The notes below the pieces were generated by a model. It was not told where the DNA came from, searched no databases, and saw only the letters and a program-made list of their open reading frames with translations. A stretch of 51,816 bases of DNA from Clostridia bacterium (GTDB lineage Bacteria > Bacillota > Clostridia > UMGS1883), in the NCBI GenBank assembly GCA_051866635.1, contig JBJDXJ010000022.1:1-51816 (forward strand). Direction: 5' to 3'. The first letter of the stretch is position 1. Every line of letters begins with the position of its first letter. Made by a program: the position numbers and the translations under genes. This document shows, piece after piece, positions 11,327 through 27,500 of this stretch.

Positions 11327-11360
11327 GAGGTATGAAATCCGTAATTGGGTTTCATACCTC
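11327..11360. terminator. Intrinsic terminator between the convergent lipid kinase and the fum/hdr operon
   Basis: GAGGTATGAAATCC-GTAATT-GGGTTTCATACCTC hairpin. Confidence 0.7.
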
Positions 11361-11379: not shown

Positions 11380-11940
11380 TTATTTATTGCGTGATGCTAA
11401 ATAAGCCTTTTTACCATCTTCGTAAAGGTTATTGCCTTCGGAGTCAATAATAACAACAAGGGGCATATCCTCAACGTAGAGCTTTCTAAGTGCTTCTGCA
11501 CCTAAATCTTCGTATGCGATAAGTTCACATTTCTTGATGCACTTTGCCAAAAGGGCACCAGCACCGCCGATTGCACCAAAGTAAACACCGCTGTATTTCT
11601 TCATAGCATCAACAACTTCGGGGAGTCTTGCACCTTTACCAATCATACCTCTTGCACCAACGCTCATCATAGTAGGTGCATAAGCGTCCATTCTGCCGCT
11701 TGTTGTAGGACCGGCAGAACCGATAACCTGACCGGGCTTAGCAGGAGTGGGACCTACGTAGTAGATTGTGGCATCGGTGGGATCAAATGGAAGGGGCTGA
11801 CCTGCAGCTAAGGCTTCGCACATTCTCTTGTGACCTGCGTCACGGGATGTGTATATTGTACCTGTAAGAAGTACGCTGTCGCCGGCTTTAAGAGTTTTTG
11901 CAAGCTCTTTTGTTAAGGGGAGTGTAATTCTCTTTTCCAT
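11380..11940 (-). CDS. Class I (Fe-S) fumarate hydratase, beta subunit
   Basis: LKAGDSVLLTGTIYTSRDAGHKR, GSAGPTTSGRMD, MIGKG, DLGAEA. Confidence 0.9.
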   Translation of the reverse strand: MEKRITLPLTKELAKTLKAGDSVLLTGTIYTSRDAGHKRMCEALAAGQPLPFDPTDATIYYVGPTPAKPGQVIGSAGPTTSGRMDAYAPTMMSVGARGMIGKGARLPEVVDAMKKYSGVYFGAIGGAGALLAKCIKKCELIAYEDLGAEALRKLYVEDMPLVVIIDSEGNNLYEDGKKAYLASRNK

Positions 11941-12782
11941 TATATCACCTCCGACTTATGTCTTGTAACGTGACAGTTTATGTTGATAGCACAGGGCATA
12001 CCTGCAATATGAGTGGGCATAGTTTCAATGTTCAAGCCAATTGCAGTGGATCTGCCGCCAAAGCCCTGAGGACCGATGCCAAGGGCATTAACCTTTTCAA
12101 GCATTTCTTTTTCCAAATCAGCATAGAAGGGATCGGGATTGGGCTGGTCAATAGGACGCATAAGTGCCTTCTTAGCCAAAAGTGCCGCCTTGTCAAATGT
12201 ACCACCGATACCTACACCGATTGTCATGGGAGGACAGGGGTTGGGGCCTGCAATTTCAACAGTTTCCAAAATGAAATCCTTAATGCCCTGAAGTCCTGCA
12301 GAGGGCTTAAACATACGGATAGCACTCATGTTTTCGCTACCAAAGCCCTTAGGACCTACAGTAACCTTAACACTTTCACCGTCAACGATTTCTGTATAAA
12401 TCATTGCGGGAGTGTTGTCACCTGTGTTACCGCGACGAACCGGGTCCGCTACAACACTCTTACGAAGGTAACCGTTTGCATAGCCACGGCGAACGCCCTC
12501 GTTTATAGCATCTGTGAGATTGCCGCCTGTAAAGTGAACATCCTGACCAATCTCAAGGAATACACAAGCCATGCCTGTGTCCTGACAGATGGGAACACAT
12601 TCATTTTCTGCAATCTCAAAGTTTGTGATAATATTGTCCAATACACCTTTTGCAATGTCCCAGTCTTCGCAAGCACGGCAGGACTTAATAGCATTCTGTA
12701 CGTCCTTGGGGAGGAACTGGTTTGCTTCGATACAAAGTTTTTCAACTACGTCTGTAATTGTCTGTACTTGAATTTCGCGCAT
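11940..12782 (-). CDS. Class I (Fe-S) fumarate hydratase, alpha subunit
   Basis: PICQDTG, LRKSVV, KGFGSEN, NPCPP, IGPQGFGG, NCHVTRH; three Fe-S Cys present. Context favours fumarate over tartrate. Confidence 0.9.
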   Translation of the reverse strand: MREIQVQTITDVVEKLCIEANQFLPKDVQNAIKSCRACEDWDIAKGVLDNIITNFEIAENECVPICQDTGMACVFLEIGQDVHFTGGNLTDAINEGVRRGYANGYLRKSVVADPVRRGNTGDNTPAMIYTEIVDGESVKVTVGPKGFGSENMSAIRMFKPSAGLQGIKDFILETVEIAGPNPCPPMTIGVGIGGTFDKAALLAKKALMRPIDQPNPDPFYADLEKEMLEKVNALGIGPQGFGGRSTAIGLNIETMPTHIAGMPCAININCHVTRHKSEVI

Positions 12783-12803
12783 ATTTTCACCTCAGTTTTA
12801 TTT

Positions 12804-12829
12804 AGGGCACATAGATAGCTATGTGCCCC
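12804..12829 (-). other. Intra-operon stem-loop between frdA-like and fumarate hydratase genes
   Basis: GGGCACATAG-ATAG-CTATGTGCCC perfect inverted repeat, no U-tract on the minus strand. Confidence 0.55.
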
Positions 12830-12836
12830 TATTTAA

Positions 12837-14435
12837 TTAGCGTTCGTGGCGAGCGTACTTGGGAAGAAGGAGGGGAGAAACCTGTTCGGATTCTATACCG
12901 GCATTCTTCAATTCTTCTGCATATGCCTTAATATGGTCAAGGTTCATTGTGCCAAGCTCAACTTCCTTAGCCTTAGCCGCTGCTGCCTTACCTGCATTTC
13001 TGCCGAATACGATAATGTCAAGGAGAGAGTTGCCCATAAGACGGTTTCTGCCGTGGATACCACCAACTGCTTCGCCTGCAACAAGAAGGTTACCGATTGC
13101 CTTTGTGAAGCCGTCACCGCCAATTTCCAAACCACCATTCTGGTAGTGAAGTGTGGGGTAAACAAGGATGGGTTCTTTTCTCATATCGATACCGTAGTTA
13201 AGGTACATTCTGAGCATTGCGGGAATTCTCTTTTCAATTGTACCTTCACCGTGGAGAATTTCAATCATGGGAGTATCAAGCCATACACCGCTGCCGAGAG
13301 GTGTCTCAACACCCCTGCCGTTAGCACATTCACGGATAATAGCAGATGCGGACACGTCACGTGTTTCAAGAGGATGAGCATATGCTTCACCGTCTTTGTT
13401 AACCAGCATTGCTCCGATAGAACGAACCTTTTCAGTAACAAGTGCACCGAAAATCTGTGCGGGGTATGCAACACCTGTGGGGTGATACTGGATTGTATCC
13501 TGATAAAGAAGAGGTGCACCTGCACGGTATCCTAAGATAAGACCATCGGCTGTAGCGCCGTAATGGTTAGAAGTGGGGAAGCCCTGGTAGTGAAGTCTGC
13601 CTGCACCGCCTGTTGCGATGATAACAGTCTTTGCTTTCGCTACCATGTAATCGCCTGTTTCCATGTTAAGAAGAACAGCACCTGCTACCTGACCCTTATC
13701 GTCCTTGATAAGTTCAACAGCTGATGTAAATTCAACAACGGGAATACCACGGTTGATAACTTCGTCACGGAGTGTACGCATGATTTCAGCACCGGAATAG
13801 TCCTTACAAGCGTGCATTCTCTTTCTGGAAGTACCGCCACCGTGTGTTGTAACCATTCTACCGTCTTCGTCCTTATCAAACATTACACCCAAATCATTTA
13901 ACCAGCGGATAGCATCAGGTGCTTCCATTACAAGACGACGGAGAAGTTCGGGACGAGCCGCAAAGTGACCGCCACCGAAAGCATCGATATAATGCTGAAC
14001 TGGGGAGTCGTTTTCCTTGTCAGCCGCCTGAATACCGCCTTCAGCCATCATTGTGTTTGCGTCACCAATTCTAAGCTTAGTAACAATCATAACATTGGCA
14101 CCTGCTTCGTGTGCTTCAATAGCCGCACTGCTGCCTGCACCGCCACCACCGATAACAAGCACGTCTGTTTCATAATCAACCTTTGTAAGGTCGATATCAA
14201 CGCCTAAAAGACGGCTGTTGGAGTGGAGAAGATTACCAAGTTCCGTGGGGATTTTTTCACCCTTGTTGGGACCAATTTTAATTTCAACAAAGCCCTCTGC
14301 TTTATAGTCGGGATGGTATGCTTTAAGAAGTTCATCCTTTTCTTCAGCAGTCATTCTTCTGGGTTCTGTCTTCATTCTTTCTGCTCTTGTTGCTTCAACT
14401 TTTTTGATAGATTCACGCATTGCTTCTGTAAACAT
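12837..14435 (-). CDS. Soluble fumarate reductase flavoprotein subunit (SdhA/FrdA/TfrA family)
   Basis: GGGGAG FAD motif; dicarboxylate-site motifs QYHPTG, LVTEKVR, LETRD, LHYQNGG, HGRNRLMGNSL. Confidence 0.85.
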   Translation of the reverse strand: MFTEAMRESIKKVEATRAERMKTEPRRMTAEEKDELLKAYHPDYKAEGFVEIKIGPNKGEKIPTELGNLLHSNSRLLGVDIDLTKVDYETDVLVIGGGGAGSSAAIEAHEAGANVMIVTKLRIGDANTMMAEGGIQAADKENDSPVQHYIDAFGGGHFAARPELLRRLVMEAPDAIRWLNDLGVMFDKDEDGRMVTTHGGGTSRKRMHACKDYSGAEIMRTLRDEVINRGIPVVEFTSAVELIKDDKGQVAGAVLLNMETGDYMVAKAKTVIIATGGAGRLHYQGFPTSNHYGATADGLILGYRAGAPLLYQDTIQYHPTGVAYPAQIFGALVTEKVRSIGAMLVNKDGEAYAHPLETRDVSASAIIRECANGRGVETPLGSGVWLDTPMIEILHGEGTIEKRIPAMLRMYLNYGIDMRKEPILVYPTLHYQNGGLEIGGDGFTKAIGNLLVAGEAVGGIHGRNRLMGNSLLDIIVFGRNAGKAAAAKAKEVELGTMNLDHIKAYAEELKNAGIESEQVSPLLLPKYARHER

Positions 14436-14447
14436 ATTTATCCCTCC

Positions 14448-15122
14448 TTATTTCTCAATTTCTCTTGTGTTGTAGAGCTCTTTCATTTCAGTGATGGGCT
14501 TGCCCATAACCTGTTCGATAAGCTCGTCGTATGCACCGTGGTTGATTTCTTCAACACGAGTTTTAAGATGCTCAGTTTCGGGAGCAATGTACTTGCCTGT
14601 AAGTCTTCTTGCGAGTAAACCAACCATGGGGTGGGAAATGCCTGCAGGACAACGAACTGTACAGCAACCGCAACCTACGCAGTCAAAAGATTCTTCAGCA
14701 CACTTTTCAAATTCACCACGCTGAGCATATGCGATGTACTGCATTACGTTAAGTGACTGTGTACAAGCCTTGGTACAAGCGTTACAGCCGATACAGCTGT
14801 AAATTTCAGGATATAATTCCATCATAATCTGCTGTGTAGGCTTAATTTGCTGAATATCGTAAGTTCTCTTATCTGTGGGGAAGAAGGGGATAGATGCAAT
14901 ATACATACCCTCCTGAACCTGTGTCTGACAAGCAAGACAGGTCTTTAATTCGTTCTGACCTTTGATTCTGTAAATAGTAGCACAAGCACCGCAGAAACCG
15001 TGACGGCAACCGCAACCGCGGCTAAGAGTGTAGCCGGCGTATTCCATAGCTGTCATGATTGTAAGATCGGCAGGCACCTGGTACTTCTTACCGAAGAAAT
15101 ATACATTAACCATGTTTTCCAT
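14448..15122 (-). CDS. Fumarate reductase iron-sulfur subunit ([2Fe-2S] + 2x[4Fe-4S])
   Basis: CRHGFCGAC...C, CIGCNACTKAC, CVGCGCCTVRCP; adjacent to the flavoprotein gene. Confidence 0.8.
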   Translation of the reverse strand: MENMVNVYFFGKKYQVPADLTIMTAMEYAGYTLSRGCGCRHGFCGACATIYRIKGQNELKTCLACQTQVQEGMYIASIPFFPTDKRTYDIQQIKPTQQIMMELYPEIYSCIGCNACTKACTQSLNVMQYIAYAQRGEFEKCAEESFDCVGCGCCTVRCPAGISHPMVGLLARRLTGKYIAPETEHLKTRVEEINHGAYDELIEQVMGKPITEMKELYNTREIEK

Positions 15123-15151
15123 TTCTATGTCTTCCTTTCTGTTAATCTGTA

Positions 15152-16009
15152 TTAGTATTCTGCCGGGATTTCGTCAAGCTCGTCACAGTGGAATACAGGA
15201 CCGTCCTTACATACGTACTTACTGCCTATATTGCATCTGCCGCACTTGCCAACGCCGCACTTCATACGAAGCTCTAAAGTTGTGATAATCTGCTTTTTGT
15301 CAAAGCCCATTTCCTGCAAGCCCTGAAGAACGAATTTAATCATAATCGGAGGACCGCAGATAAGAGCAACCTTGTTTGTGTCAAAGCCGATTTCCTTAAG
15401 ATAAGAAGGAACAAAGCCTACGTGACCGTCCCAACCTTCCTGTTCACGGTCGATTGTAAGGTAAACATTAACGTTGGGAGCCTTCATCCAGACTTCCTGA
15501 ATTTCCTTAAGCTGAACAAGATCATCAGCTGAACGTGAACCGTAGAGAATATCAACAGTGCCGTAATTTTCACGGTTATCAAGAACGTAGTTAATAACAC
15601 TGCGGAGAGGAGCAAGACCGATACCACCTGCAATAAAGAGGAGGTTTTTGCCCTTCAATTCTGTTTCTACGGGGAAGTTATTACCGTAAGGTCCTCTGAC
15701 TGTGATTTCTTCGCCAACTTCCATAGAGTGGAGATAGTCAGTAAGAACACCGCACTTTTTAATTGAAAATTCCTGAAATTCTTTATTTGTTGGGGAAGAA
15801 GTGATGGAGAACATCGCTTCACCTACACCGGGAACAGATACCATTGCACATTGACCGGGCATATGCTCAAATAACTTGGAGCCGTCGGGAGCTACCACAC
15901 GGAAAGTTTTAACATCGGGAGTTTCCTGACGAATATCTGTAACTACGCCAACATGAGGAATAAGAGTGTCTTCATAAAACTTGTCGTGATTGCAATTACA
16001 TTCGCTCAT
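15152..16009 (-). CDS. flxA: FlxA-like FAD/NAD(P)-binding oxidoreductase (AsrB/HydG family)
   Basis: PGQC, FSITSSP, RGPYGN, AGGIGLAPLRS, CGPPIM, MKCGVGKCGRC...VCKDGPVF. Confidence 0.8.
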   Translation of the reverse strand: MSECNCNHDKFYEDTLIPHVGVVTDIRQETPDVKTFRVVAPDGSKLFEHMPGQCAMVSVPGVGEAMFSITSSPTNKEFQEFSIKKCGVLTDYLHSMEVGEEITVRGPYGNNFPVETELKGKNLLFIAGGIGLAPLRSVINYVLDNRENYGTVDILYGSRSADDLVQLKEIQEVWMKAPNVNVYLTIDREQEGWDGHVGFVPSYLKEIGFDTNKVALICGPPIMIKFVLQGLQEMGFDKKQIITTLELRMKCGVGKCGRCNIGSKYVCKDGPVFHCDELDEIPAEY

Positions 16010-17040
16010 TAGCTTTTACCTCCCTTTTCAAAAGCTTTAATAACCTTTACAATGTTAAGCCCTGAGGGGCACTTGTCAACACATCTGCCACAACCTACGC
16101 AGGAGAACATGCCGTCATTGTTTTGAGGATAATACACCAGCTTGTGCATAAATCTCTGACGGTAACGCTGCATCTGACTTGTACGGTTATTGCCGTGTGC
16201 CATCATTGTAAAGTCGGAATACATACAAGAGTCCCAACAACGATACCTTTGTACGCCGTCACCTGTGTTATAGTCTTTAATATCATAGCACTGACATGTG
16301 GGGCATACGAATGTACATGTTCCGCATGCAAGACAGGGCTTATAAAGTTCTTCCCAAATGGGAGAATTGAACTTGTCAAGTAATACCGCATCGCTTCCCC
16401 AACCATCAAGAGAAAGGTTAGAATAGGGGAGACGTTCAACTATAGATTTAATGGAAGCCTTTTCTTCTTCAACCTTTTTATCATCTGCATCGGTAAGAAG
16501 GCTCTTAACCAAATCTGTCAAAGCGTTACCCTTATCGGTAACAGGTGACCAGTAAAGTTCACCGTCAATCATATATGCCTGTACGTCAGCGGCAGGTGCT
16601 GATGCATCAACGCCGAATACATTACAGAAGCATGATTCTTCAGGCTCGTGACAGGCTAAAGCTACAATTGTGCCATGTTCACGGCGAGCTTTGTAGTAAG
16701 AGTCAACAGGGTCAACAAGGAAAACCTTGTCAAGGACTTCAAGACCCTTTACGTCACAAGATTTCATGCCGAACACAACAAAATCCTTACTCTGACGTTC
16801 TTCGGGAGTGATGTTAAGCTTTTTGCCTTCACGCTTACATGTGTATAAAGTTTCACTTTGTGGGAAGAATGCATCTTTAGGAGACTTAACAGTTTTTAAA
16901 GTGTCAAGGTCAACTGTAACACTTTCATCCCATGCGGCAAAGTTAACACTGCCGTTTATATTGCAAGGTACATATAATTCCTGTGTGTCCGCAATAAGAG
17001 AGAATAATGCGGACAGATTTTCTTTATTTATCTTGTACAT
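16009..17040 (-). CDS. flxB: FlxB-like 4Fe-4S protein (AsrA/HydB family)
   Basis: SPKDAFFPQSE, CLACGTCTFVCPTCQC, RCWDSC, RQRFMHK, CVGCGRCVDKCP. Confidence 0.78.
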   Translation of the reverse strand: MYKINKENLSALFSLIADTQELYVPCNINGSVNFAAWDESVTVDLDTLKTVKSPKDAFFPQSETLYTCKREGKKLNITPEERQSKDFVVFGMKSCDVKGLEVLDKVFLVDPVDSYYKARREHGTIVALACHEPEESCFCNVFGVDASAPAADVQAYMIDGELYWSPVTDKGNALTDLVKSLLTDADDKKVEEEKASIKSIVERLPYSNLSLDGWGSDAVLLDKFNSPIWEELYKPCLACGTCTFVCPTCQCYDIKDYNTGDGVQRYRCWDSCMYSDFTMMAHGNNRTSQMQRYRQRFMHKLVYYPQNNDGMFSCVGCGRCVDKCPSGLNIVKVIKAFEKGGKS

Positions 17041-17043
17041 ACA

Positions 17044-18021
17044 TTATCCCCTTTCTGTAACTATGCCGGGTTCAACATCGTCAAATGTGAAGTTTGTAAG
17101 AGGTCCTCTTGAGTCTGTATCGGCACCTGCCTGATACTCACCGTAGAATGTATCAATATCCTTGATAAACTTACGGTTAAACAAATGAAGGGGAATACCC
17201 TGAGGACAAACTCTTGAACATTCACCGCAGTCAGTACATCTGCCTGCAACGTGGAACGCACGGATGACATGGAACATTTTTTCTTCAAATGAGTCAACAT
17301 TTGCCTTTGCTGCTTCATCAAACTTGTTGGAGTCAAATACGCACTTACGGCAGGAACAAGCGGGGCATACGTTTCTGCATGCGTTACAACGGATACATTT
17401 GCTGAGTTCATTCTGGAAGAGGGCAAACTTTTCTTCAGGACTCATTTTTTCAATCCTTTCAACTTCAGCAAAGCGATCTGCATCCTTTGTGTCACGGCTG
17501 TCAAGCATAACTTCGTCAGCTATCTGATGTTCCTTACCTTTACATACGTGGCAACGTTCTAACATTGCATCGTTGTAGGAACATGTCTTGTCACCGTAAA
17601 GGGTTTTTATTGTAAGTGTTTCGCAATCGGCATCCATAGAGGCACCTGAAACTTCAAGTATACCCTTGATGCCCATTGACTTGATTTTTTCAATGTTAAG
17701 CTTACCCTTACAGCCAACGCCGATAATGTAAGCCTTTTCACGGTCAACACGGTGTTCCTTTATAAGCTGGTTAAAACTGTATGTGTCGCAAGGCTTAAGG
17801 AAAACAAGTGTTTTTCCTTCTTTCTTGCTAGCTTCAATCATGTACTTAGAAAGGTTAGCACCACAGAAACCGTCATAGATAAAATCCGAATCTAAGCTTT
17901 CTGCTGTTTCAAAGTAACAAGGTTCGGGGTTGAAGCCTAAATCGCCCTTCTTCCAACCGAGGACACGAGCTACTTTACCGCTTGCCAAAAGCTCTTTTGC
18001 ACGGTTGATTAATCTTTGCAT
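17044..18021 (-). CDS. flxC: FlxC-like 4Fe-4S protein
   Basis: KPCD, CIRCNACRNVCPACSCRKC, RAFHVAGRCTDCGECSRVCP. Confidence 0.75.
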   Translation of the reverse strand: MQRLINRAKELLASGKVARVLGWKKGDLGFNPEPCYFETAESLDSDFIYDGFCGANLSKYMIEASKKEGKTLVFLKPCDTYSFNQLIKEHRVDREKAYIIGVGCKGKLNIEKIKSMGIKGILEVSGASMDADCETLTIKTLYGDKTCSYNDAMLERCHVCKGKEHQIADEVMLDSRDTKDADRFAEVERIEKMSPEEKFALFQNELSKCIRCNACRNVCPACSCRKCVFDSNKFDEAAKANVDSFEEKMFHVIRAFHVAGRCTDCGECSRVCPQGIPLHLFNRKFIKDIDTFYGEYQAGADTDSRGPLTNFTFDDVEPGIVTERG

Positions 18022-18449
18022 CTCAAATCCCCCAATCTTACGTTTTCACCAAGTGAACGGATTTTTTCAACAAATTCGTTCATTGTTGCAGAGAACTTAA
18101 CACCTTCGGCGGCGGAAACCCATTCAACACGTGTTCTGCCATTTTCAACGCCAAGATAATCAAGCATAGAGAAGAGAAGAGTCATTCTTCTTCTTGCATA
18201 ATAATTACCTGTAGAATAGTGACAGTCACCGGGGTGGCATCCGCAAAGGATAACACCGTCAGCACCCTTTTCAAATGCACGAAGTATAAACATAGGGTTA
18301 ACTCGGCAAGAACAGGGAACACGGATAATCTTTACGTCGGCGGGATATGCTAAACGGCTGCTGCCTGCAAGGTCAGCACCGGCATAACTACACCAGTTAC
18401 AGCAAAATGCCACTATCTTAGGTTTGAATTCTGTATTGTTCATCGACAT
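18009..18449 (-). CDS. mvhD: MvhD/FlxD [2Fe-2S] adaptor subunit
   Basis: FCCNWCSYAGAD, RVPCSCRV, GADGV, GCHPGDCHY, WVSAAEG. Confidence 0.92.
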   Translation of the reverse strand: MSMNNTEFKPKIVAFCCNWCSYAGADLAGSSRLAYPADVKIIRVPCSCRVNPMFILRAFEKGADGVILCGCHPGDCHYSTGNYYARRRMTLLFSMLDYLGVENGRTRVEWVSAAEGVKFSATMNEFVEKIRSLGENVRLGDLRCKD

Positions 18450-20428
18450 ATTGCATCCACCTCCGCGATAATCTGTCTGTTAGAGAAGCCCTGGAGGTCC
18501 ATTGCACCGGAAGGACAAGCAACTGTACAAGCACCGCAACCCTGACAAAGAGCACTGTTAACCTGTGCAAGTCGACGGTCTTCACGGATACCGTGGTCGT
18601 TAACCTGTTTAACTTCGTATGTGATGGCACCATAGGGACATACGTTAGCACATGTGGAGCAACCGTTACAAAGAAGCTCGTCAGCCTTTGCAGTACAGGG
18701 GTTAGTTGTGAGCTTATCCTTTGCAAGTAAGCCGATAGCCTTTACTGCCGCCGCACCTGCCTGTGCTACTGTTTCGGGAATATCTTTGGGTCCCTGGCAT
18801 ACACCGGAGAGGAAAATACCGGCGGTGGGGGACTCAACGGGACGAAGCTTTGCATGGGATTCTGTAAGGAAGTTATTTGTGTCAATACTTGCAGTAAGCA
18901 TTGTTGCAATCTTTCTTACGGAAGCAGAAGGTTCAATTGCTGTTGCAAGAACAACCATGTCAGCTTCTATTTTAATCTGTTTGTTGTCAAGAAGGTCACT
19001 TGCCTGAACTAAAAGTTTACCGTCGGGCTGGGGAGCAACCTTGCCAACCTGTCCTTTAATATAGTTTACATCGTATTCTTCAACTGCTCTGCGGTAGAAT
19101 TCATCAAAGTTCTTACCGGGAGTACGAACGTCAATATAGAATACAGTAACCTTAACATCGGGATATTTGTCACGGATGAGCATTGCGTGCTTAGCTGTAT
19201 ACATACAGCAAATCTTGGAGCAGTAGCTCTTACCGCGGTTATCGTTACAACGGGAACCTACGCACTGTACAAATACAATATGCTCGGGGTGCTTTCCGTC
19301 ACTAAGTCGTTCAAGATGACCCTTTGTAGGACCTGCCGCATTCATAACTCTTTCAAGTTCAAGAGATGTGATAACGTCAGGGGACTGGTTGTATGCATAT
19401 TCGTCATAATTGTCAAGGCTTATTGTGTCAAAGCCTGTTGCAACAACGATTGCACCGTACTTTTCTGTTACAATTTCATCCTGCTGATCGTAGTTGATTG
19501 CACCTGCCTGACAAACCTTGGAGCAAAGTCCGCATTTGCCTGTCTGGAATTTGATACAAGCATCTCTGTCAATTACAGGAACATTTGGGATAGCCTGAGC
19601 AAAGGGCGTGTAGATAGCACTTCTTGTGTTAAGTCCACGGTTAAACTCGGAAGGAGTCTTCTTTGAAGGACACTTTTCCTGACAAGCACCGCAACCTGTA
19701 CACTTATCCATATCAACGCTTCTTGCCTTTTTACGGATATCCACTGTAAAGTCACCTACGAAGCCTGTTACCTTTTCAACTTCGCTGTAGGTGTAAATAG
19801 TAATCTTTTCATGAGCTGCCGCTTCAACCATCTTAGGTGTAAGAATACAAGCAGAACAGTCAAGAGTGGGGAATGTTTTATCAAGCTGGCTCATTCTGCC
19901 GCCGATTGAAGGAGTAGTTTCCACAATGTCAACTTCGTATCCTGCATCTGCAATATCGATAGCTGTCTGTATACCTGCGATACCACCGCCGATAACAAGT
20001 GCACGCTTAGTAACACGGCTTTCACCGGGGAAAAGAGGAGCGTTAAGATTAACCTTTGCAACAGCCGCACGGGCAAGAATAACAGCCTTTTCTGTTGCTT
20101 CCTCCACGTTCTTATGAATCCAGGAACAATGTTCACGAATGTTTGCAATTTCAACCATGTAAGGGTTAATGCCTGCTCTTTCAGCCGCTTTTCTGAAAGT
20201 ATTCTCGTGCATACGAGGTGAACATGAACAAACTACAATGCCTGTAAGGTTCTTTTCCTTAACTGCTTCCAAAATCTTAGCCTGACCTGCTTCGGAACAC
20301 ATATACTGATAATCTTCAGCATGCACAACGCCCATCTCATGGCTTATTACTTCAACTACTTTTTTTACGTCAACCGTAGCGGCAATGTTACTGCCACAGT
20401 GGCAAACGAAAACACCAATTCTCTGCAT
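18440..20428 (-). CDS. hdrA: Heterodisulfide reductase subunit A (flavin-based electron bifurcation subunit)
   Basis: RIGVFVCHCGSNIA, NIREHCSW, GGGIAG, DKTFPTLDCSAC, inserted ferredoxin domain, QCVGSR...CSKICCMYTAKHA, C-terminal 2x[4Fe-4S]. Confidence 0.96.
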   Translation of the reverse strand: MQRIGVFVCHCGSNIAATVDVKKVVEVISHEMGVVHAEDYQYMCSEAGQAKILEAVKEKNLTGIVVCSCSPRMHENTFRKAAERAGINPYMVEIANIREHCSWIHKNVEEATEKAVILARAAVAKVNLNAPLFPGESRVTKRALVIGGGIAGIQTAIDIADAGYEVDIVETTPSIGGRMSQLDKTFPTLDCSACILTPKMVEAAAHEKITIYTYSEVEKVTGFVGDFTVDIRKKARSVDMDKCTGCGACQEKCPSKKTPSEFNRGLNTRSAIYTPFAQAIPNVPVIDRDACIKFQTGKCGLCSKVCQAGAINYDQQDEIVTEKYGAIVVATGFDTISLDNYDEYAYNQSPDVITSLELERVMNAAGPTKGHLERLSDGKHPEHIVFVQCVGSRCNDNRGKSYCSKICCMYTAKHAMLIRDKYPDVKVTVFYIDVRTPGKNFDEFYRRAVEEYDVNYIKGQVGKVAPQPDGKLLVQASDLLDNKQIKIEADMVVLATAIEPSASVRKIATMLTASIDTNNFLTESHAKLRPVESPTAGIFLSGVCQGPKDIPETVAQAGAAAVKAIGLLAKDKLTTNPCTAKADELLCNGCSTCANVCPYGAITYEVKQVNDHGIREDRRLAQVNSALCQGCGACTVACPSGAMDLQGFSNRQIIAEVDAICR

Positions 20429-20433
20429 TCAAA

Positions 20434-20823
20434 TCACCTCCTATATCTTCTGAATGCGCTTACGAGAAGCTGCTGTGGAAGGTCTTCGTCAAGAAGCTCG
20501 GGAATTTCGTCAGCCTTTAAATAATCGCCGCCTTTTTCACGAACTACTATCTGCCTTGCCGCATCAATAAGTTTGCCGGGCATAACGCTTCTGGGGCAAC
20601 GCTCAATACATGCAAAACAGGAAAGACACTTCCAGAGAGATTTGGAATTTGAAAGTGCCTCAATATCGTCGTTTATAACATATGAAACAAACTGGTGAGG
20701 CTTAATATCCATTTCATCAAAAGCGGGACAAGTTGCAGAGCACTTACCGCACTTCATACATTTGAGAGGATTAACGCCGCTGATTTCTTTAATTCTTTCA
20801 GCCTGATTTGTATTGTGACTCAT
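20434..20823 (-). CDS. hdrC: Heterodisulfide reductase subunit C
   Basis: CMKCGKCSATCP and LWKCLSCFACIERCPR, located between hdrB and hdrA. Confidence 0.88.
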   Translation of the reverse strand: MSHNTNQAERIKEISGVNPLKCMKCGKCSATCPAFDEMDIKPHQFVSYVINDDIEALSNSKSLWKCLSCFACIERCPRSVMPGKLIDAARQIVVREKGGDYLKADEIPELLDEDLPQQLLVSAFRRYRR

Positions 20824-21614
20824 TATTCAGCAGCCTCCTTTAATCCTAAAGCTTCAGCGAGAAGTTCTGTGAAATAGTAAACAGGAACACCGCCAACGCT
20901 GTTTTTATTTAAATTATACATACAAAGGGGGCATGCTGTAATAAGCATATCTGCACCGAAGCCCTTTGCACTTTCAACGATTGTATCGCACATATTTTTA
21001 GCCATATCCTTTTCCTTAAGTGAGATATAGCCGCCGCAACATTCATTACGGTAGGGATAAACAACCGGTGTTGCACCTATTGCACGGATAAAATCTTCAA
21101 TAATAGTGGGGTTTTCGGGATTGTCAAATGCGAGAATGTCGCCGGGGCGGAGAAGAAGACAACCGTAGTATGCACCAATCTTCTTGCCTGTCAAGGGGTT
21201 TGTAACCTTTTCCTTTAATTTGTCAAAACCAACCTTGTCACGGAGAACTTCTAAGAAATGGAGCACATTTGTTTCACCTTTGTATGGTGTTTCAAGCTGC
21301 ATATAGTTGTTAGCTCTCGTTTGTATGTCAGCTACGTTTTTCATATCGTCGTTAACACGCTTGATAACATGGTGACAAGCCGAGCAAAGGGTAACCAAAT
21401 CCTGCCCCTTTTCTTTTGCACTGTTTAATGCACGGACCGAGGAAAGTTTAGTTGCAATTTCGTCACTGCCCAAAGGGTAAACGCCGCCGCAACACTGCCA
21501 ATCTTCGATTTCGTCCAATTCAAAACCTAAAGCTATGGCAGACTTTCTTGCATATTCGTCCAAGTCTTTAGCCTTGGTTCTGAGAGTACAACCGGGATAG
21601 TAACTGTACTTCAT
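20823..21614 (-). CDS. hdrB: Heterodisulfide reductase subunit B (two CCG domains)
   Basis: YYPGC-x31-CCG..CSAC and YYGC-x39-CCG..CPLC. Start set at MKYSYYPG after AAAGGA. Confidence 0.92.
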   Translation of the reverse strand: MKYSYYPGCTLRTKAKDLDEYARKSAIALGFELDEIEDWQCCGGVYPLGSDEIATKLSSVRALNSAKEKGQDLVTLCSACHHVIKRVNDDMKNVADIQTRANNYMQLETPYKGETNVLHFLEVLRDKVGFDKLKEKVTNPLTGKKIGAYYGCLLLRPGDILAFDNPENPTIIEDFIRAIGATPVVYPYRNECCGGYISLKEKDMAKNMCDTIVESAKGFGADMLITACPLCMYNLNKNSVGGVPVYYFTELLAEALGLKEAAE

Positions 21615-21667
21615 GGTGTCTGTATCCTTTCTGAGTAGATTTTTTGTGATATACAATATTGTAAAAA

Positions 21668-22618
21668 TTACAATTCAATATTTGCAATGATATCTTTAAG
21701 AGTCTTTGCACTTGCCTGAAGCTGTGCAACTTCTTCATCTGTAAGGTGCATGGGAAGCTTACCCTGAATACCGTTGGGGCCAACAAGTGTAAGTGTGGAA
21801 AGACATACATCGTCAATGCCGTATTCACCGTGCATCATGGAAGATACTGTTGCAACAGAGTCGCTTGCAGCTGTAACTGTGGAGCAAAGCTTTACAACGG
21901 AAGCGGATACTGCGTAGAATGTAGCACCCTTGTTAGCAATAATCTTACCGCCGGACTTCTGAACGTATTCAAGCATAGCATCCTTATCAAGAGGCTTGTA
22001 ATTCTTGCCGAGAGCTTTTGTACATTCGTAATAATCTTCAATCTTGATGCCTGCAACGTCTGCACAAGACCAGGGAATAAAGCTGCTGTCACCGTGTTCA
22101 CCGAAAACATAAGCGTGAACATTCTTCTGAGCTACATGCAAAAGCTCGGATATGCCTGTCTTAAGACGAGCTGTGTCAAGAATTGTACCGGAACCGATAA
22201 CCTGGTTTTCGGGAAGACCGGAAATCTTTGTGAACACATATGTCATAATATCAACAGGATTACTTACAATAATGTAAAGGGCATTGGGAGCATACTTTAC
22301 AATTTCGGGAGTAATACTCTTTAAAATGTTTACATTTGTCTGTGTAAGTTCAAGTCTTGTCTGACCGGGCTTACGTGCCATACCGGAGGTGATAATTACG
22401 ATGTCAGAACCTTCAGCGTCCTTGTATTCGCCTGCAACGATTTTAATGGGGTTTCTAAAGCAAGTGCCCTGAAGAATGTCAAGTACTTCGCCCTCAACCT
22501 TTTGCTTGTTAATGTCAATGAGAACGATTTCACTTGCCATGTCCTCTTCGTGAGAAAGCGTATAAGCTATTGTTGCACCTACACTGCCCGCACCGATGAT
22601 AGTAATTTTACTGCTCAT
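21668..22618 (-). CDS. mdh: LDH-like NAD-dependent malate dehydrogenase (probable; LDH/MDH superfamily)
   Basis: GAGSVG Rossmann motif, GMARKPGQTRLEL loop with Arg at the specificity position, SNPVD, LDTAR, GEHGDS. Confidence 0.7.
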   Translation of the reverse strand: MSSKITIIGAGSVGATIAYTLSHEEDMASEIVLIDINKQKVEGEVLDILQGTCFRNPIKIVAGEYKDAEGSDIVIITSGMARKPGQTRLELTQTNVNILKSITPEIVKYAPNALYIIVSNPVDIMTYVFTKISGLPENQVIGSGTILDTARLKTGISELLHVAQKNVHAYVFGEHGDSSFIPWSCADVAGIKIEDYYECTKALGKNYKPLDKDAMLEYVQKSGGKIIANKGATFYAVSASVVKLCSTVTAASDSVATVSSMMHGEYGIDDVCLSTLTLVGPNGIQGKLPMHLTDEEVAQLQASAKTLKDIIANIEL

Positions 22619-22694: not shown

Positions 22695-22723
22695 ATTGTA
22701 GCATAAATTAGTGGTTCTAACAA
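22695..22723 (-). promoter_or_regulatory. Putative sigma-A promoter of the mdh-hdr-flx-frd-fum operon
   Basis: TTGTTA-17 nt-TACAAT with TG extended -10 on the minus strand. Confidence 0.55.
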
Positions 22724-24525: not shown

Positions 24526-27500
24526 ATGATGAAAAGAATACTATCATTTTTATTGGCTTTTGCAATGATTATAAGTGCTTTTCCAAGTAGTATAAATGTT
24601 TTGGCAAAAGAAACAGTTTCTAATCTGAGTTTGATAAATTATGGCAGTAGCGGAAATAGCTCAGGCACGGGTATACTTGTGGCAACAGGGGTGTACCCGG
24701 GCAGTAGCGGAACAAGCGACAAAGCACCTTACATAGCAGATGATACAGGTTCGTTTATGACAAACCTCGGTTCTACACGTATAGGCGTTATGGCGTTTTC
24801 GACCGAGGGCGTAAGTGCCGATACGGTTAAAACTGCCACCCTTAATGTGTATGTAAATTTTGTAAACGGAAATATCGGCACAGGCTGGCTGAGATTTGCC
24901 GCTTATGAAACAGATAACCCTTCTCTTACATATTCTGTGGGCGGTATGAATCAGGCTTTGTTCCCTGCAAAAAACAATGATTATTCATACAATGCGGCAA
25001 TGTGGTCAAATGAAAGGTTCACAAACAAAGGTACAGAGGGACAAACTGCAGGGTGGGCAACAATTGATGTGACAAGGGCTGTTAAAAATGCGGTGCTTGA
25101 CGGAAAAAACTATGTTGTACTTCGTTTTCAGGTGCCCACGGCTGGTATAAATCTTTCAACCGAAGGGGATTATGCTCCTTTCATTGAGCTTGTTTCGGGG
25201 GATAAGGTACCGGTTACGATAAACTGCGTTGACGAAAATGACAACGTTATAAAAACAACAACGGAATATATTTTAGAGGGTACAAATTATAAAGCCACTG
25301 CCGATACATATTTAACACTCGGCAATGTTGTTTACACACTTGACGGTGAATCAGAGCAGGAAATTACAGTCAGCGAGGAAGGTAACACGGTAGTATTTAA
25401 CTACACAAGCTCTTTGAGCAATGTGATGGCAAAATACGAATTTGAAGATTCAAGCTTTGCCTTGGGAGATACAGTTACAGACTCATCGGGCAACGGATAT
25501 GACGGATCAGTTGCAGTGGGAGATTTGAGCATAACGGACGGCGTGTACGGAAATGGGATTAATTTAAACAGCAACGGTTACATTGAACTGCCGAGTAATT
25601 TAATTACCGCTTTGAAAGAACTTGACGGCTTTACAGTAAGTGCTTTGGTTAAGAAAAATGCTTTGCAGCATCAGTTTTTGTTTTCAGCATCTGCTGCACA
25701 TTTAACTTCAGGCTCTGTAAGCCTTGGCATTATTGACGCCTATAATTACCGTTATGAAGCAAACGGCGACAGTATTACAACAGGCAAACGAACAGAAACA
25801 GACAGTGAATACGCCTATCTTACAGCCTCTTTGGATTTTGCAAACGGAACGGGCACGCTATATATTGACGGTGTTCAGGTCGGCAGCGGAAGCATTTCAA
25901 AAACCCTTACCGATGTAGGGGCAACTGTGATGGGCATTGGCGTTTCGCCTTATAATGATGGGTACTATAACGGATATATAGACCAATTTGAAATTTATAA
26001 CAAAGTGCTTTCATCAAGCGAGGTTTCAAAAGTTGCAGGATTGATGACAATAACGCCTGTATATACAGATAGTGAAAATAATCGTTCTTACCGTGGCGAA
26101 AGTATTACGGCAAGAATTGGCGAAAGCGTAACTTTTGAAAAGAGCGTTAAAGACAATACTACGTTTTATAATTTTGACGCAATAAACGAAGGCGACCTTA
26201 CAACTACAGTTGTATATGCCGAGGGGCTTTCTTATGATTATATAATTTCAAGTACAAGCGACAAAAATGCCGCATACAAATTGGTAGACAGTGTTACTAT
26301 AGGCGGTGAATGTTCCGAATATGATATAACTCTTCCCGACACTGTGGAGGGCTATGAAGAAAGCCAAATAACTTGGAGCTATGACAGCGATTACGTAACT
26401 GTAGCAGGCAAAAAGGCAACCTTTGAAAAAAAGGACTATACATATACCGTAACATTCACAGCAACTATTGAATACCAGGGGGAAAGCTGCACAAAAGACT
26501 TTAAAGTTTTGGTTCACGCCGAGGACTGCACACCCACTTCAGGCACACGGGCATTCGATATAAACGGATTGGGCTACACCGTGGCAGATGGGGAAAACTT
26601 AATTGATATTGATTTATTTGACTACACCTGTAACAGTTATACAGGCTGGACGAGCGGTGGTGCGGCTCTTACGGATAATTTTAGCATTGCAGAGGGCTAC
26701 AATGACTGCGGCAGTATAAAGGCGGCATCTTTGCCGGGAAGTACGGCGGCAGGCAGTATTAACCCCTACATTCCCCTGCCTGAGCATACGGGTGAGGAAG
26801 CATTTATTATTTCCTTTGCAATAAAGGGCGAGTCAAATTCATCTATTGAGTGGTCAAACGCATTTTTGTGCGATGAAGGAAAAAACAACACAGGCTTTGT
26901 ATGTGGGACATACGACGGCACAAACTATCGCTACGGAATAAATGCATCGCAAAACTGGAGTGTAAACCGCTTTGCCTTTACACCGGGCAAAGACGATAAA
27001 TATATCCGCCTTTGTATAGGTTGGACAAGTAATATTGCCATTGACAATATTTCAATTGTTAAAGCCGAAAAGCATATGATTGAAGTAAGCGAGAGGTATG
27101 TTGACAACCTTACCGTGTATGATGAACAAACAGTTTTAGGCGAGGGCGAATATAGCGTAACGCTTCAATACGGTGAAAAATACATATCAGAACAAGTGCC
27201 TGAAAGCATTGAAGTTGACGGAGTAAATTATATTCTTGTGTCAAATAACAGCGAAAAAACTGTTAAATCAGACACAAACGAATTAACGTTTGATTACCGT
27301 TATATTGATGAAAAGGATAAATTTTTGCATCCCGGCATTTTAAATACCGATGCAGATTTGACAAGAATTGCAGAGGCTATTGCAAATGAAGAAGAGCCAT
27401 ATTATAGTGCATATCAGGCTTTTACGGAGAACACTTATACAAACATAGGCACTGCAAGAGCAGTAGGGTCCGTAAACCGTGGTGGCACGGGTGACAACTG

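Follow-up and report, generated by a model that had tools for sequence, protein, structure and literature searches.

Among the closest described systems is the 'succinate operon' of Pseudoclostridium thermosuccinogenes, to which a 2019 preprint by Koendjbiharie and van Kranenburg is reportedly tied. For that operon, which an earlier sequence-only reading of our locus had correctly cited, the same bifurcation model that we consider here was proposed, and expression rose about 4-fold under CO2 limitation; like the present operon, it unites fumarate hydratase and a fumarate reductase of two genes with the seven genes of Flx-Hdr, with oxaloacetate from GTP-PEPCK and succinate formation proposed to be coupled to ferredoxin reduction (Koendjbiharie et al. 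2020, PMC7282089). Bifurcation was independently proposed for tubeworm symbionts (Rubin-Blum 2019, PMC6315080; Mitchell 2024, PMC11636981); in these and in Thioflavicoccus mobilis, Tfr-like FrdAB is likewise interspersed with flxABCD-hdrABC and proposed to receive electrons directly, although the expression pattern of tfrAB in Endoriftia differed from that of the rest of the cluster (PMC11636981), which counts against the model. FlxABCD-HdrABC of Desulfovibrio vulgaris reportedly has the same seven subunit types as our locus, with NADH as proposed donor, ferredoxin as low-potential acceptor and DsrC as proposed high-potential acceptor (Ramos et al. 2015, as cited in PMC7282089, PMC5861303 and PMC6315080). 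In the methanogen MvhAGD-HdrABC complex (PDB 5odc and relatives), a [NiFe] hydrogenase is the donor module and CoM-S-S-CoB the partner at the HdrB site, and TfrAB of Methanothermobacter and type E SQR-MFR systems with SdhE connect a CCG module to an SdhB-like iron–sulfur chain. The bifurcating arrangement with fumarate reductase has been put forward in print but never proven; the literature searched on this question yielded no assay or biochemical proof of such an enzyme.

Here we describe a further instance of this proposed, unproven arrangement, in a gut Clostridia genome in which neither Rnf nor Ech was found. Within the window (the whole analysed stretch of 51,816 nucleotides), the ORF list contains 12 co-directional minus-strand ORFs (22618..11380) that match, in Pfam and NCBIfam, LDH-like malate dehydrogenase, HdrB, HdrC, HdrA, FlxD/MvhD, FlxC, FlxB, FlxA, FrdB, FrdA, fumarase alpha and fumarase beta, in that order, so that malate dehydrogenase, fumarase, a membrane-free fumarate reductase and an NADH-fed Hdr-Flx module are joined in one predicted operon. 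The sequence-only reading had this content and order right but counted 11 genes, having taken the two fumarase subunits as one. The tight packing that it reported (gaps under 60 nt) was borne out by intergenic distances of −13 to +54 nt, with a GGAGG-like Shine-Dalgarno site ahead of all 12 starts, and so was its statement that the cluster has no membrane anchor, hydrogenase or dsrC: the ORF list and the Pfam and NCBIfam matches gave none, and no membrane helix was found in the 12 proteins (maximum Kyte-Doolittle 19-residue mean ≤1.44). The P. thermosuccinogenes operon, as described in PMC7282089, begins with fumarate hydratase, ends with a hypothetical protein (possibly a transporter) and has no mdh, whereas here mdh is first and a split fumarase last; judged by composition only, the two are presumably orthologous. 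The tubeworm symbiont and T. mobilis clusters belong to autotrophic Gammaproteobacteria with the rTCA cycle, with OGOR (korABCD) inserted and Rnf and PntAB nearby, whereas the present cluster lacks kor genes and lies in a fermentative member of the Clostridia.

All genes below are on the minus strand. HdrA (18440..20428; 662 aa; NF040770, 786 bits), a flavoprotein with multiple [4Fe-4S] motifs and a putative bifurcating FAD, aligns over residues 3-660 to methanogen HdrA (5odc_A, 680 bits), with conserved Cys motifs (inspected by eye) and both ferredoxin domains intact. The HdrB-like protein (20823..21614; 263 aa) contains two PF02754 stretches with two complete CCG motifs, aligns over residues 1-258 to methanogen HdrB with 10 of 10 Cys of both motifs conserved, and is the sole CCG-domain protein of the genome. 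Its longest ORF has a TTG start at 21656; the ATG at 21614 is the likelier start because residue 1 then aligns to residue 1 of solved HdrB and because this ATG has its own Shine-Dalgarno site. The HdrC-like 2x[4Fe-4S] protein (20434..20823; 129 aa; Pfam and NCBIfam) is shorter than its methanogen counterpart and has a different C-terminal tail, which is conserved (residues 106-125 are largely invariant across 32 orthologues). An MvhD-like subunit, FlxD (18009..18449; 146 aa; PF02662 FlpD, 185 bits), is also shared with the methanogen complex, whereas the donor module here is Flx, presumably fed by NADH. It comprises a FlxC-like FeS protein (17044..18021; 325 aa; 4Fe-4S dicluster domain at residues 205-276), whose gene keeps its place in the Flx module in all 56 loci; FlxB (16009..17040; 343 aa; PF17179), an AsrA/sulfhydrogenase-beta-like (HydB-like) FeS protein with NCBIfam scores under both cut-offs (ShyB 191 bits, AsrA 157 bits); and FlxA (15152..16009; 285 aa; FAD_binding_6, NAD_binding_1 and the 2Fe-2S domain DHODB_Fe-S_bind), the putative NADH entry point.

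Where D. vulgaris is proposed to use DsrC, not found in this 96.6%-complete genome, the operon instead contains FrdAB. FrdB (14448..15122; 224 aa) is a very divergent SdhB/FrdB relative with one 2Fe-2S and two CxxCxxCxxxC [4Fe-4S] motifs and no CCG domain, colinear with E. coli FrdB (1kf6_B) over residues 14-194, although the match is weak (E = 3.8e-4). FrdA (12837..14435; 532 aa; FAD_binding_2 at residues 91-471) has a conserved N-terminal extension of 88 aa, and is short, lacking the PF02910 C-terminal domain. Its best NCBIfam family is TfrA (344.7 bits against a cut-off of 718), none of the curated NCBIfam fumarate reductase or SdhA models reaches its cut-off, and the HdrB-like protein matches the SdhE family (142.8 bits) and the HdrB family (141.1 bits) equally well. 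These matches recall the TfrAB and SdhE-type systems, but scores here are far under the curated cut-offs and no thiol or quinone partner is evident; moreover, TfrB carries FeS and CCG parts in one polypeptide, whereas frdB and hdrB are separate and seven genes apart. In FrdA, the counterparts of E. coli SdhA R286, H354 and R399 are Arg359, His318 and Arg465; the covalent-FAD His45 of SdhA is Asn and His242 is Ala, the latter position being non-His (Leu) also in the top solved relative, 7d6v. Asn in place of the covalent-FAD His is expected of an enzyme working in the reductase direction, and succinate oxidation generally needs covalent FAD. The features of FrdA thus fit a fumarate reductase, with fumarate as the probable substrate mainly from context, because the His242 equivalent is Ala and no curated cut-off is reached.

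Complex prediction for HdrB, HdrC and FrdB, a check that had been suggested for this locus, gave scores of 0.17, 0.87 and 0.89 in three runs (median 0.87; best of three controls 0.07), the one low run counting against the interface. Among 80 solved complexes, 58 attain the score mark, as do 2 among 110 mismatched pairs; these counts hold only roughly here, as the calibration set consists of single-chain pairs run with different alignments. The runs share at least 28% of their contacts (partner pLDDT ≥80), placing HdrB C9, R12-K14, D38-C41 and G43 (first CCG motif) against FrdB 107-113, the first CxxC of its first [4Fe-4S] motif, and 158-159, with HdrC tail residues 104-129 also touching FrdB. 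The FrdB protein is therefore the predicted partner where the methanogen complex binds CoM-S-S-CoB, and the contact corresponds to the CCG-to-SdhB-like wiring of TfrAB and SdhE-type systems. No CCG-protein/SdhB-like complex was found among solved chains (the HdrB search at E ≤1e-5 gave methanogen HdrB only), so the result is unlikely to be a memory of a similar solved complex. Docking covered these three proteins. The model points to a direct electron path from Hdr towards fumarate that would need no thiol carrier.

Conservation among relatives points the same way. The nine-gene core hdrBCA-flxDCBA-frdBA is colinear in all 56 loci with at least 7.4 kb of upstream sequence, and in 80 of 80 related loci whatever genes are present keep order and strand; together with the docking median, this supports in silico a physical Frd-Hdr link. 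Of 200 genomes sampled from the class, 46 have a FrdB orthologue, and the arrangement is common in gut Clostridia. The fumarase genes, encoding class I alpha (11940..12782; 280 aa; PF05681 Fumerase, 388.8 bits) and beta (11380..11940; 186 aa; PF05683 Fumerase_C, 198.5 bits) subunits, come after frdA in 63 of 70 loci. Of 53 loci, 36 have mdh ahead of the core, so its earlier placement in the same operon holds for this locus but is optional in relatives. The encoded protein (21668..22618; 316 aa; Ldh_1_N and Ldh_1_C) passes the NCBIfam cut-offs of both the MDH subfamily (288 against 283 bits) and L-lactate dehydrogenase (340.7 against 339). At the Q102/R102 specificity position it has Arg, as does its best PDB match, 1y6j, where LDH 4m1q has Gln. 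We call it a malate dehydrogenase because of this substrate-discriminating Arg and its context.

Elsewhere in the genome are a GTP-PEPCK (555 bits) and NadB as the sole other FrdA-like gene. The [FeFe] hydrogenases include a group A6 NADH-dependent enzyme, whose gene adjoins one that is NuoF-like, and two that are monomeric. No UbiA/MenA-family prenyltransferase was found in the genome, which, with the lack of a membrane subunit in the cluster, fits the quinone-free part of the earlier claim of quinone-free energy conservation. Chemiosmotic conservation finds no backing here: in this genome RnfC falls below its cut-off, and searches for RnfD/NqrB and for Ech/NuoD-like proteins gave none, whereas P. 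thermosuccinogenes has both Rnf and Ech (PMC7282089). Since Rnf, Ech and a route to quinones were not found, the most likely sink for reduced ferredoxin is the [FeFe] hydrogenases, and the gain is probably redox balancing through them rather than chemiosmosis.

We consider it probable, at roughly 60%, that the operon encodes a soluble, quinone-independent, bifurcating fumarate-reducing supercomplex plus two feeder enzymes. Oxaloacetate from GTP-PEPCK would be converted to fumarate by the LDH-like malate dehydrogenase and the two-subunit class I fumarase. NADH would enter at FlxA, with FlxB, FlxC and FlxD relaying electrons to the HdrA FAD, where the pair would be split: the low-potential electron would pass through the HdrA ferredoxin domains to ferredoxin, and the high-potential electron through HdrC to the two non-cubane clusters of HdrB. 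No disulfide would be reduced there; the electron would instead go straight into the [4Fe-4S]/[2Fe-2S] chain of FrdB at the CCG site and on to a non-covalent FAD of FrdA, the presumed site of fumarate reduction. The net reaction would be 2 NADH + oxidised ferredoxin + fumarate → 2 NAD+ + reduced ferredoxin + succinate, such that one fumarate would take up two NADH and more ATP could be made by substrate-level phosphorylation. With fumarate at an E0' of +33 mV, NADH at −320 mV (PMC5861303) and ferredoxin at about −500 mV (PMC9304861), arithmetic gives about −33 kJ/mol; because about −33 to −49 kJ/mol would stay unused, the coupling may be more complex than this scheme.

The same potentials leave room for a simpler enzyme, a non-bifurcating soluble NADH:fumarate oxidoreductase in which Flx/Hdr is a mere wire to FrdAB and ferredoxin stays unreduced or serves only as alternative donor. 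NADH to fumarate is exergonic by itself (PMC5861303), and neither Rnf nor Ech is there to use reduced ferredoxin chemiosmotically. A precedent, compared here by description only, is the fumarate reductase of Hydrogenobacter thermophilus, with reportedly dispersed subunit genes and no known claim of bifurcation. That enzyme is reported to be soluble, five-subunit and NADH-dependent (Miura 2008, as cited in PMC13147460). Yet eleven genes, nine of them strictly conserved, would be a heavy apparatus for downhill transfer, HdrA matches the bifurcating methanogen enzyme along its entire length and retains both ferredoxin domains, and ferredoxin-using hydrogenases are present, making this reading unlikely. 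Less probable still is a pair of enzymes joined by a diffusible thiol, in which Flx-Hdr reduces a disulfide as well as ferredoxin, and the thiol is then oxidised again by FrdAB, as thiol:fumarate reductase does. No ligand of the disulfide-reducing site is missing from HdrB, which counts against the direct wire in that a so far unrecognised thiol substrate would be equally compatible with it; FrdA's best family is TfrA; and a DsrC-like route is among the options named for Endoriftia (PMC11636981). But FrdB lacks the CCG domain, the thiol-oxidising part of TfrB, and the model puts FrdB over the CCG site of HdrB; because CCG domains occur only in HdrB and DsrC was not found in the genome, a thiol partner is improbable.

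It is very unlikely that FrdAB acts on another enoate or acceptor, the fumarase link being a by-product of TCA-branch clustering. FrdA does fall under every curated fumarate reductase or SdhA cut-off and has neither a His242 equivalent nor the C-terminal domain, and the FAD_binding_2 family includes urocanate reductase (6t85); yet FrdA retains the Arg, His and Arg with which fumarate reductases carry out catalysis, 7d6v too is non-His at the His242 position, and the recurrent fumAB directly after frdA and mdh ahead of the core argue for fumarate. We give equally little weight to the reverse reaction, confurcation, with succinate and reduced ferredoxin reducing NAD+ in an operon for succinate oxidation. 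Flavin-based bifurcating enzymes are generally reversible, as are the fumarase and malate dehydrogenase reactions, but the Asn at the covalent-FAD position of FrdA argues against succinate oxidation, and GTP-PEPCK and the fermentative hydrogenases point to a saccharolytic succinate-former. The P. thermosuccinogenes operon, too, belongs to succinate production (PMC7282089).

The promoter that the sequence-only reading had predicted upstream of the cluster (22695..22723, minus strand) was present in our scan as a sigma-70-like candidate (TTGTTA, 17 nt, TACAAT; 9 of 12 consensus positions) with TG before the −10 element, but it is no more than a match to the consensus, and the region holds 39 such matches where 24.9 would be expected; the leader of the cluster is 274 nt long and AT-rich. 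The earlier terminator call was sound: the minus-strand hairpin at 11327..11360 (dG −21.3 kcal/mol, z −6.29), followed by a U-rich tail, was matched in stability by none of 200 shuffles. This terminator is common to the cluster and a convergent gene. An 11-bp stem-loop without a U-tract lies on the minus strand in the frdA-fumA gap (12805..12828; dG −19.7 kcal/mol, z −3.2), at a site that the signal scan of the window flagged on the plus strand.

Twelve ORFs, all co-directional on the minus strand, span positions 22618 to 11380 in the ORF listing of the window, with gaps of −13 to +54 nt between genes and a GGAGG-like ribosome-binding site at each start. The composition claimed in a sequence-only reading, an Hdr–Flx module clustered with frdBA, fumarase and mdh, was borne out by Pfam and NCBIfam searches: in gene order, an LDH/MDH-family dehydrogenase (gene 1; 21668-22618, minus strand), hdrB (HdrB-like, with two CCG domains), hdrC (HdrC-like, 2×[4Fe-4S]), hdrA (NF040770, 786 bits), flxD (an MvhD/FlpD protein), flxC (a FlxC-like FeS protein), flxB (AsrA/sulfhydrogenase-beta-like), flxA (FAD and NAD binding, 2Fe-2S), frdB (a 224-aa FeS protein), frdA (a 532-aa FAD_binding_2 flavoprotein; 12837-14435, minus strand) and the adjacent fumA and fumB (class I fumarase alpha and beta; Fumerase, 388.8 bits, and Fumerase_C, 198.5 bits). 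A promoter candidate lies upstream of the operon (9-of-12 consensus match, extended −10), and at the terminator that had also been claimed a strong hairpin (dG −21.3 kcal/mol, z −6.3) is followed by a U-rich tail. The asserted lack of a membrane anchor likewise held: the highest 19-residue Kyte–Doolittle mean across all 12 operon proteins was 1.44, with no membrane-spanning hydrophobic stretch in any of them, and the operon thus has no anchor of the kind found in a classical membrane QFR.

The FlxABCD–HdrABC gene set is complete and co-located (flxA, flxB, flxC, flxD (mvhD), hdrA, hdrB and hdrC, by Pfam and NCBIfam). HdrA carries the FAD domain and [4Fe-4S] Cys motifs, and its residues 3-660 align at 680 bits to 5odc_A, the bifurcating Methanothermococcus HdrA, with the Cys motifs kept for those inspected by eye in the alignment. 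HdrB retains all ten Cys of both CCG motifs (non-cubane clusters), and likely starts at ATG 21614 rather than at an upstream TTG, residue 1 then pairing with residue 1 of solved HdrB.

The two reductase subunits are more distant from characterized families. The best curated family for FrdA was TfrA (344.7 bits versus a cut-off of 718; NCBIfam), no curated cut-off was reached, and Pfam gave no match to the PF02910 C-terminal helical domain. FrdB, with one 2Fe-2S motif and two CxxCxxCxxxC motifs, showed weak but colinear similarity to Escherichia coli FrdB (E 3.8e-4; TIGR00384, 25.6 bits versus a cut-off of 88). The pair does not match TfrAB, since TfrB unites its FeS part with two CCG domains on a single chain, and FrdB has no CCG domain by Pfam, these domains sitting on HdrB instead. 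AlphaFold2 models of single chains were too poor for a fold search with FrdA (29 orthologues; mean pLDDT 68, with large stretches <50) and for a fold test with FrdB (32 orthologues; mean pLDDT 56). An 88-residue N-terminal extension of FrdA, conserved among the 29 orthologues and without a family match in Pfam or NCBIfam, was modelled with two helices and a small sheet (residues 1-88, pLDDT about 59-91) and may be a docking element.

Gene 1 has the Ldh_1_N and Ldh_1_C fold, and its name is ambiguous by HMM alone because it passes NCBIfam cut-offs for L-lactate dehydrogenase (340.7 versus 339, an equivalog included, and 334.3 versus 303.55) as well as for an MDH subfamily (288 versus 283). At the position where the lactate dehydrogenase 4m1q has Gln, gene 1 has Arg; by the Q102R rule, Arg at this Gln/Arg specificity position indicates oxaloacetate as substrate, which points to an LDH-like malate dehydrogenase that automatic annotation would probably label an LDH. 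The same Arg occurs in 1y6j, the top PDB match of gene 1, deposited as an LDH.

A predicted link between the two halves of the operon came from the multimer prediction of FrdB with HdrBC that had been suggested from the sequence. HdrB, HdrC and FrdB, each with a 32-orthologue alignment, were folded jointly as the sole combination run; the runs scored 0.17, 0.87 and 0.89 (median 0.87, versus 0.07 for the best of three controls), agreed in at least 28% of contacts and gave a partner pLDDT of at least 80. The score mark is reached by 58 of 80 solved complexes versus 2 of 110 mismatched pairs, counts that hold at most roughly here because own alignments and three chains were used. On the HdrB side, the predicted interface comprises C9, R12-K14, D38-C41 and G43, which make up the first CCG motif; on the FrdB side it comprises residues 96-113 (including the first two Cys of the first [4Fe-4S] motif), 124-135 and 158-159; and it also takes in the conserved C-terminal tail of HdrC (104-129). 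Solved structures matching the operon's HdrB were methanogen HdrB chains only, so no solved complex of a CCG protein with an SdhB-like chain was available to be remembered by the predictor. The model thus supports docking of FrdB on the CCG site of HdrB, backing rather than demonstrating binding. TfrB, by fusion, and type E enzymes, through SdhB–SdhE pairing, both connect a CCG module with an SdhB-like chain. The predicted HdrB–FrdB contact would resemble both arrangements, a likeness reflected in the NCBIfam scores; the operon's HdrB scored 142.8 bits for SdhE, the 'anchor' of methylmenaquinol:fumarate reductase, and an equivalent 141.1 bits for HdrB, each far short of the cut-off.

The scheme below builds on what was directly observed, namely composition, motifs, conserved linkage, the predicted interface and a lack of parts for a membrane, a quinone or a thiol carrier. 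NADH would enter at FlxA and pass its electrons through FlxB, FlxC and FlxD to the FAD of HdrA, where the pair would be split, one electron going to ferredoxin and the other through HdrC and the non-cubane clusters of HdrB directly to FrdB, and then via FrdA to fumarate. In a more far-reaching reading, given a probability of roughly 0.4, the non-cubane clusters of HdrB in this family would have given up thiol/disulfide chemistry, FrdB would plug the CCG site, and HdrBC would do no more than carry electrons from the bifurcating flavin to fumarate, making this the first Hdr complex to reach a high-potential substrate via a docked protein. The module is present in about a quarter of the Clostridia sampled (46 of 200); on the same reading it would be the principal way of reducing ferredoxin with NADH in Rnf-less gut lineages such as the window's, and would then set the succinate/H2 balance of much of the gut and rumen microbiota.

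Three other readings received low weight. A diffusible thiol could shuttle electrons between Hdr–Flx and FrdAB, the CCG motifs of HdrB being intact, but neither the disulfide acceptor DsrC (no PF04358 match) nor any CCG protein besides the operon's HdrB was found in the 96.6%-complete genome, and we regard such a shuttle as improbable. That FrdAB acts on a substrate other than fumarate is also unlikely: by alignment, FrdA R359, H318 and R465 correspond to E. coli SdhA R286, H354 and R399, so that the catalytic Arg (proton donor), His and Arg are kept. FrdA has Asn at the covalent-FAD His (SdhA H45) and Ala at the second substrate-binding His (SdhA H242), where 7d6v, the best solved relative of FrdA, has Leu. 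Operation of the complex in reverse has a similarly small chance. With fumarate at an E0' of +33 mV, NADH at −320 mV (both from PMC5861303) and ferredoxin at about −500 mV (PMC9304861, abstract), the forward reaction of 2 NADH, ferredoxin and fumarate is by arithmetic exergonic by about 33 kJ/mol.

The 2.33-Mb genome bears on where the reduced ferredoxin might go. It is a draft, in which a missing match is not proof of absence, and it returned no match for a UbiA/MenA prenyltransferase, RnfC (over cut-off), RnfD/NqrB, an Ech/NuoD-like subunit, ATP-PEPCK or methylmalonyl-CoA mutase. GTP-PEPCK and a carboxyltransferase of the oxaloacetate-decarboxylase/pyruvate-carboxylase type are encoded, and NadB is the sole other FrdA-like gene. 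Energy conservation had been proposed to be quinone-free, and the quinone-free part fits, with no UbiA/MenA found in the genome and no membrane subunit in the operon (among close relatives carrying FrdB, only 2 of 20 have a UbiA-family gene); energy conservation in a chemiosmotic sense is not backed, because with no Rnf, Ech or quinone route found in the genome the reduced ferredoxin has no evident chemiosmotic outlet. In the window's organism, hydrogenases are the likely sink, the benefit then being a doubled NADH-oxidizing capacity per fumarate. A group A6 NADH-dependent [FeFe] hydrogenase adjoins a NuoF-like gene (positions 69293-72917 of contig C6 of the window's own genome, G000; 909 bits versus 765), and the pair is likely a hydrogenase of the confurcating kind, for which the operon's complex would supply the reduced ferredoxin. 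The genome also encodes a fourth hydrogenase-like gene and two [FeFe] hydrogenases of the monomeric type (605 and 545 bits versus 450).

We considered and rejected the idea that the module replaces Rnf in general. Among 41 close relatives, 4 have both FrdB and RnfD, 16 have FrdB without RnfD, 16 have RnfD without FrdB and 5 have neither, so that 16 of the 21 RnfD-less genomes carry FrdB; this pattern follows genus lines and is not independent evidence, and the apparent anticorrelation is largely gone in an even sample of the class Clostridia, where RnfD is present in 32 of the 46 FrdB carriers, absent from 14, and present in 160 of 201 genomes overall. With RnfD in those 32 carriers, Rnf-linked conservation is possible elsewhere. 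RnfD is missing from G000 and from the other sampled species of its genus (0 of 9), as it is from two further genera (g10 and g11).

In a collection holding one genome per species, at least 578 FrdA relatives were confirmed among 599 candidate stretches, and the synteny comparison proposed from the sequence was made on the best 80 of the 578 matches, all from gut and rumen Clostridia, with cultured isolates among them; at FrdA identities of 74-97%, its counts say nothing on more distant versions. The window's order and strand were reproduced in 80 of 80 loci for the genes present. Among these best 80 of 578, the whole nine-gene core from hdrB to frdA was found in all 56 loci with at least 7.4 kb upstream of frdA, fumA and fumB lay downstream in 63 of 70 loci with room (absent despite room in seven of the 70: L011, L015, L017, L049, L069, L079 and L080, of which L011, L017, L079 and L080 are examples that do carry the nine-gene core), and of the 53 loci with room for it, 36 had mdh immediately upstream. 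The Hdr–Flx–Frd core is accordingly an invariant unit in these counts, nearly always accompanied by fumarase and often, though optionally, by mdh. In one related locus (L078), an mdh-like gene follows fumB rather than preceding hdrB.

FrdB orthologues occurred in 46 of the 200 scored genomes of the even class sample (31 of 135 genera; one further genome was unscored), all at E ≤1e-111 except one partial match, and in 20 of the 41 close relatives, including 4 of 9 other species of the window's genus. The matches were all-or-none, with near-uniform scores of 370-504 bits across many families. Uniformly high scores and a patchy distribution suggest that the whole module may have spread horizontally among gut Clostridia.

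The precedent cited for Pseudoclostridium thermosuccinogenes was confirmed. PMC7282089 describes a 'succinate operon' in which fumarate hydratase and a hypothetical protein accompany seven Flx–Hdr and two fumarate reductase genes, sets out the same bifurcation model (citing a 2019 preprint), and reports the operon about 4-fold up under CO2 limitation. An independent proposal, in PMC6315080, concerns tfrAB interspersed with flxABCD–hdrABC and korABCD in tubeworm symbionts and Thioflavicoccus; PMC11636981 later gave co-expression support for the tubeworm-symbiont cluster, tfrAB excepted, and the idea recurs in a 2026 survey (PMC13147460). The literature searched contained the proposal only, with no enzyme assay or biochemical demonstration, and had no occurrence of the phrase 'bifurcating fumarate reductase'. 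The operon is thus real and the bifurcation reading reasonable, of a kind already proposed and still unproven. What we add is the variant with mdh first and split fumarase last and a measure of how widespread the family is among Clostridia of gut and rumen, either of which may already be described, together with a genomic setting in which quinone, DsrC, Rnf and Ech components were not found and a testable model of FrdB docking on the HdrB CCG site.

If the reading is correct, many gut and rumen Clostridia would reduce fumarate without a quinone or a membrane, oxidizing two NADH per fumarate and gaining reduced ferredoxin, which would alter how electrons and ATP are accounted for in succinate fermentation and tie succinate output to H2 output. 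The enzyme would also extend flavin-based bifurcation by a new class, in which Flx–Hdr has a defined high-potential acceptor outside sulfate reducers. Because neither FrdA nor FrdB receives a name from curated HMMs, routine metabolic reconstructions probably miss the pathway, despite FrdB in 46 of 200 class genomes and at least 578 genomes, one per species, with relatives of FrdA. Carriers include cultured strains (isolates of Blautia schinkii, Fusicatenibacter faecihominis, Sporofaciens musculi, Porcincola intestinalis and Ohessyouella blattaphilus), and the biochemical question is therefore directly testable.

Within the operon, a perfect 11-bp stem-loop without a U-tract lies in the frdA–fumA gap (12805-12828; dG −19.7 kcal/mol, z −3.2) and could be a processing, stability or attenuation element setting the fumarase-to-reductase ratio; an Rfam scan of the whole window found no family at gathering score, and no known leader or riboswitch. 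The flanks are unrelated to the operon, encoding a nucleoside-type ABC transporter, phosphoglycerate mutase, sugar and lipid kinases, a purF-like gene and a 2056-aa lectin/lyase protein. This last ORF (24526-30696) has Laminin_G_3, alginate-lyase-like, ricin-type lectin and Ig-like domains, and probably encodes a large protein that degrades polysaccharides at the cell surface or after secretion.
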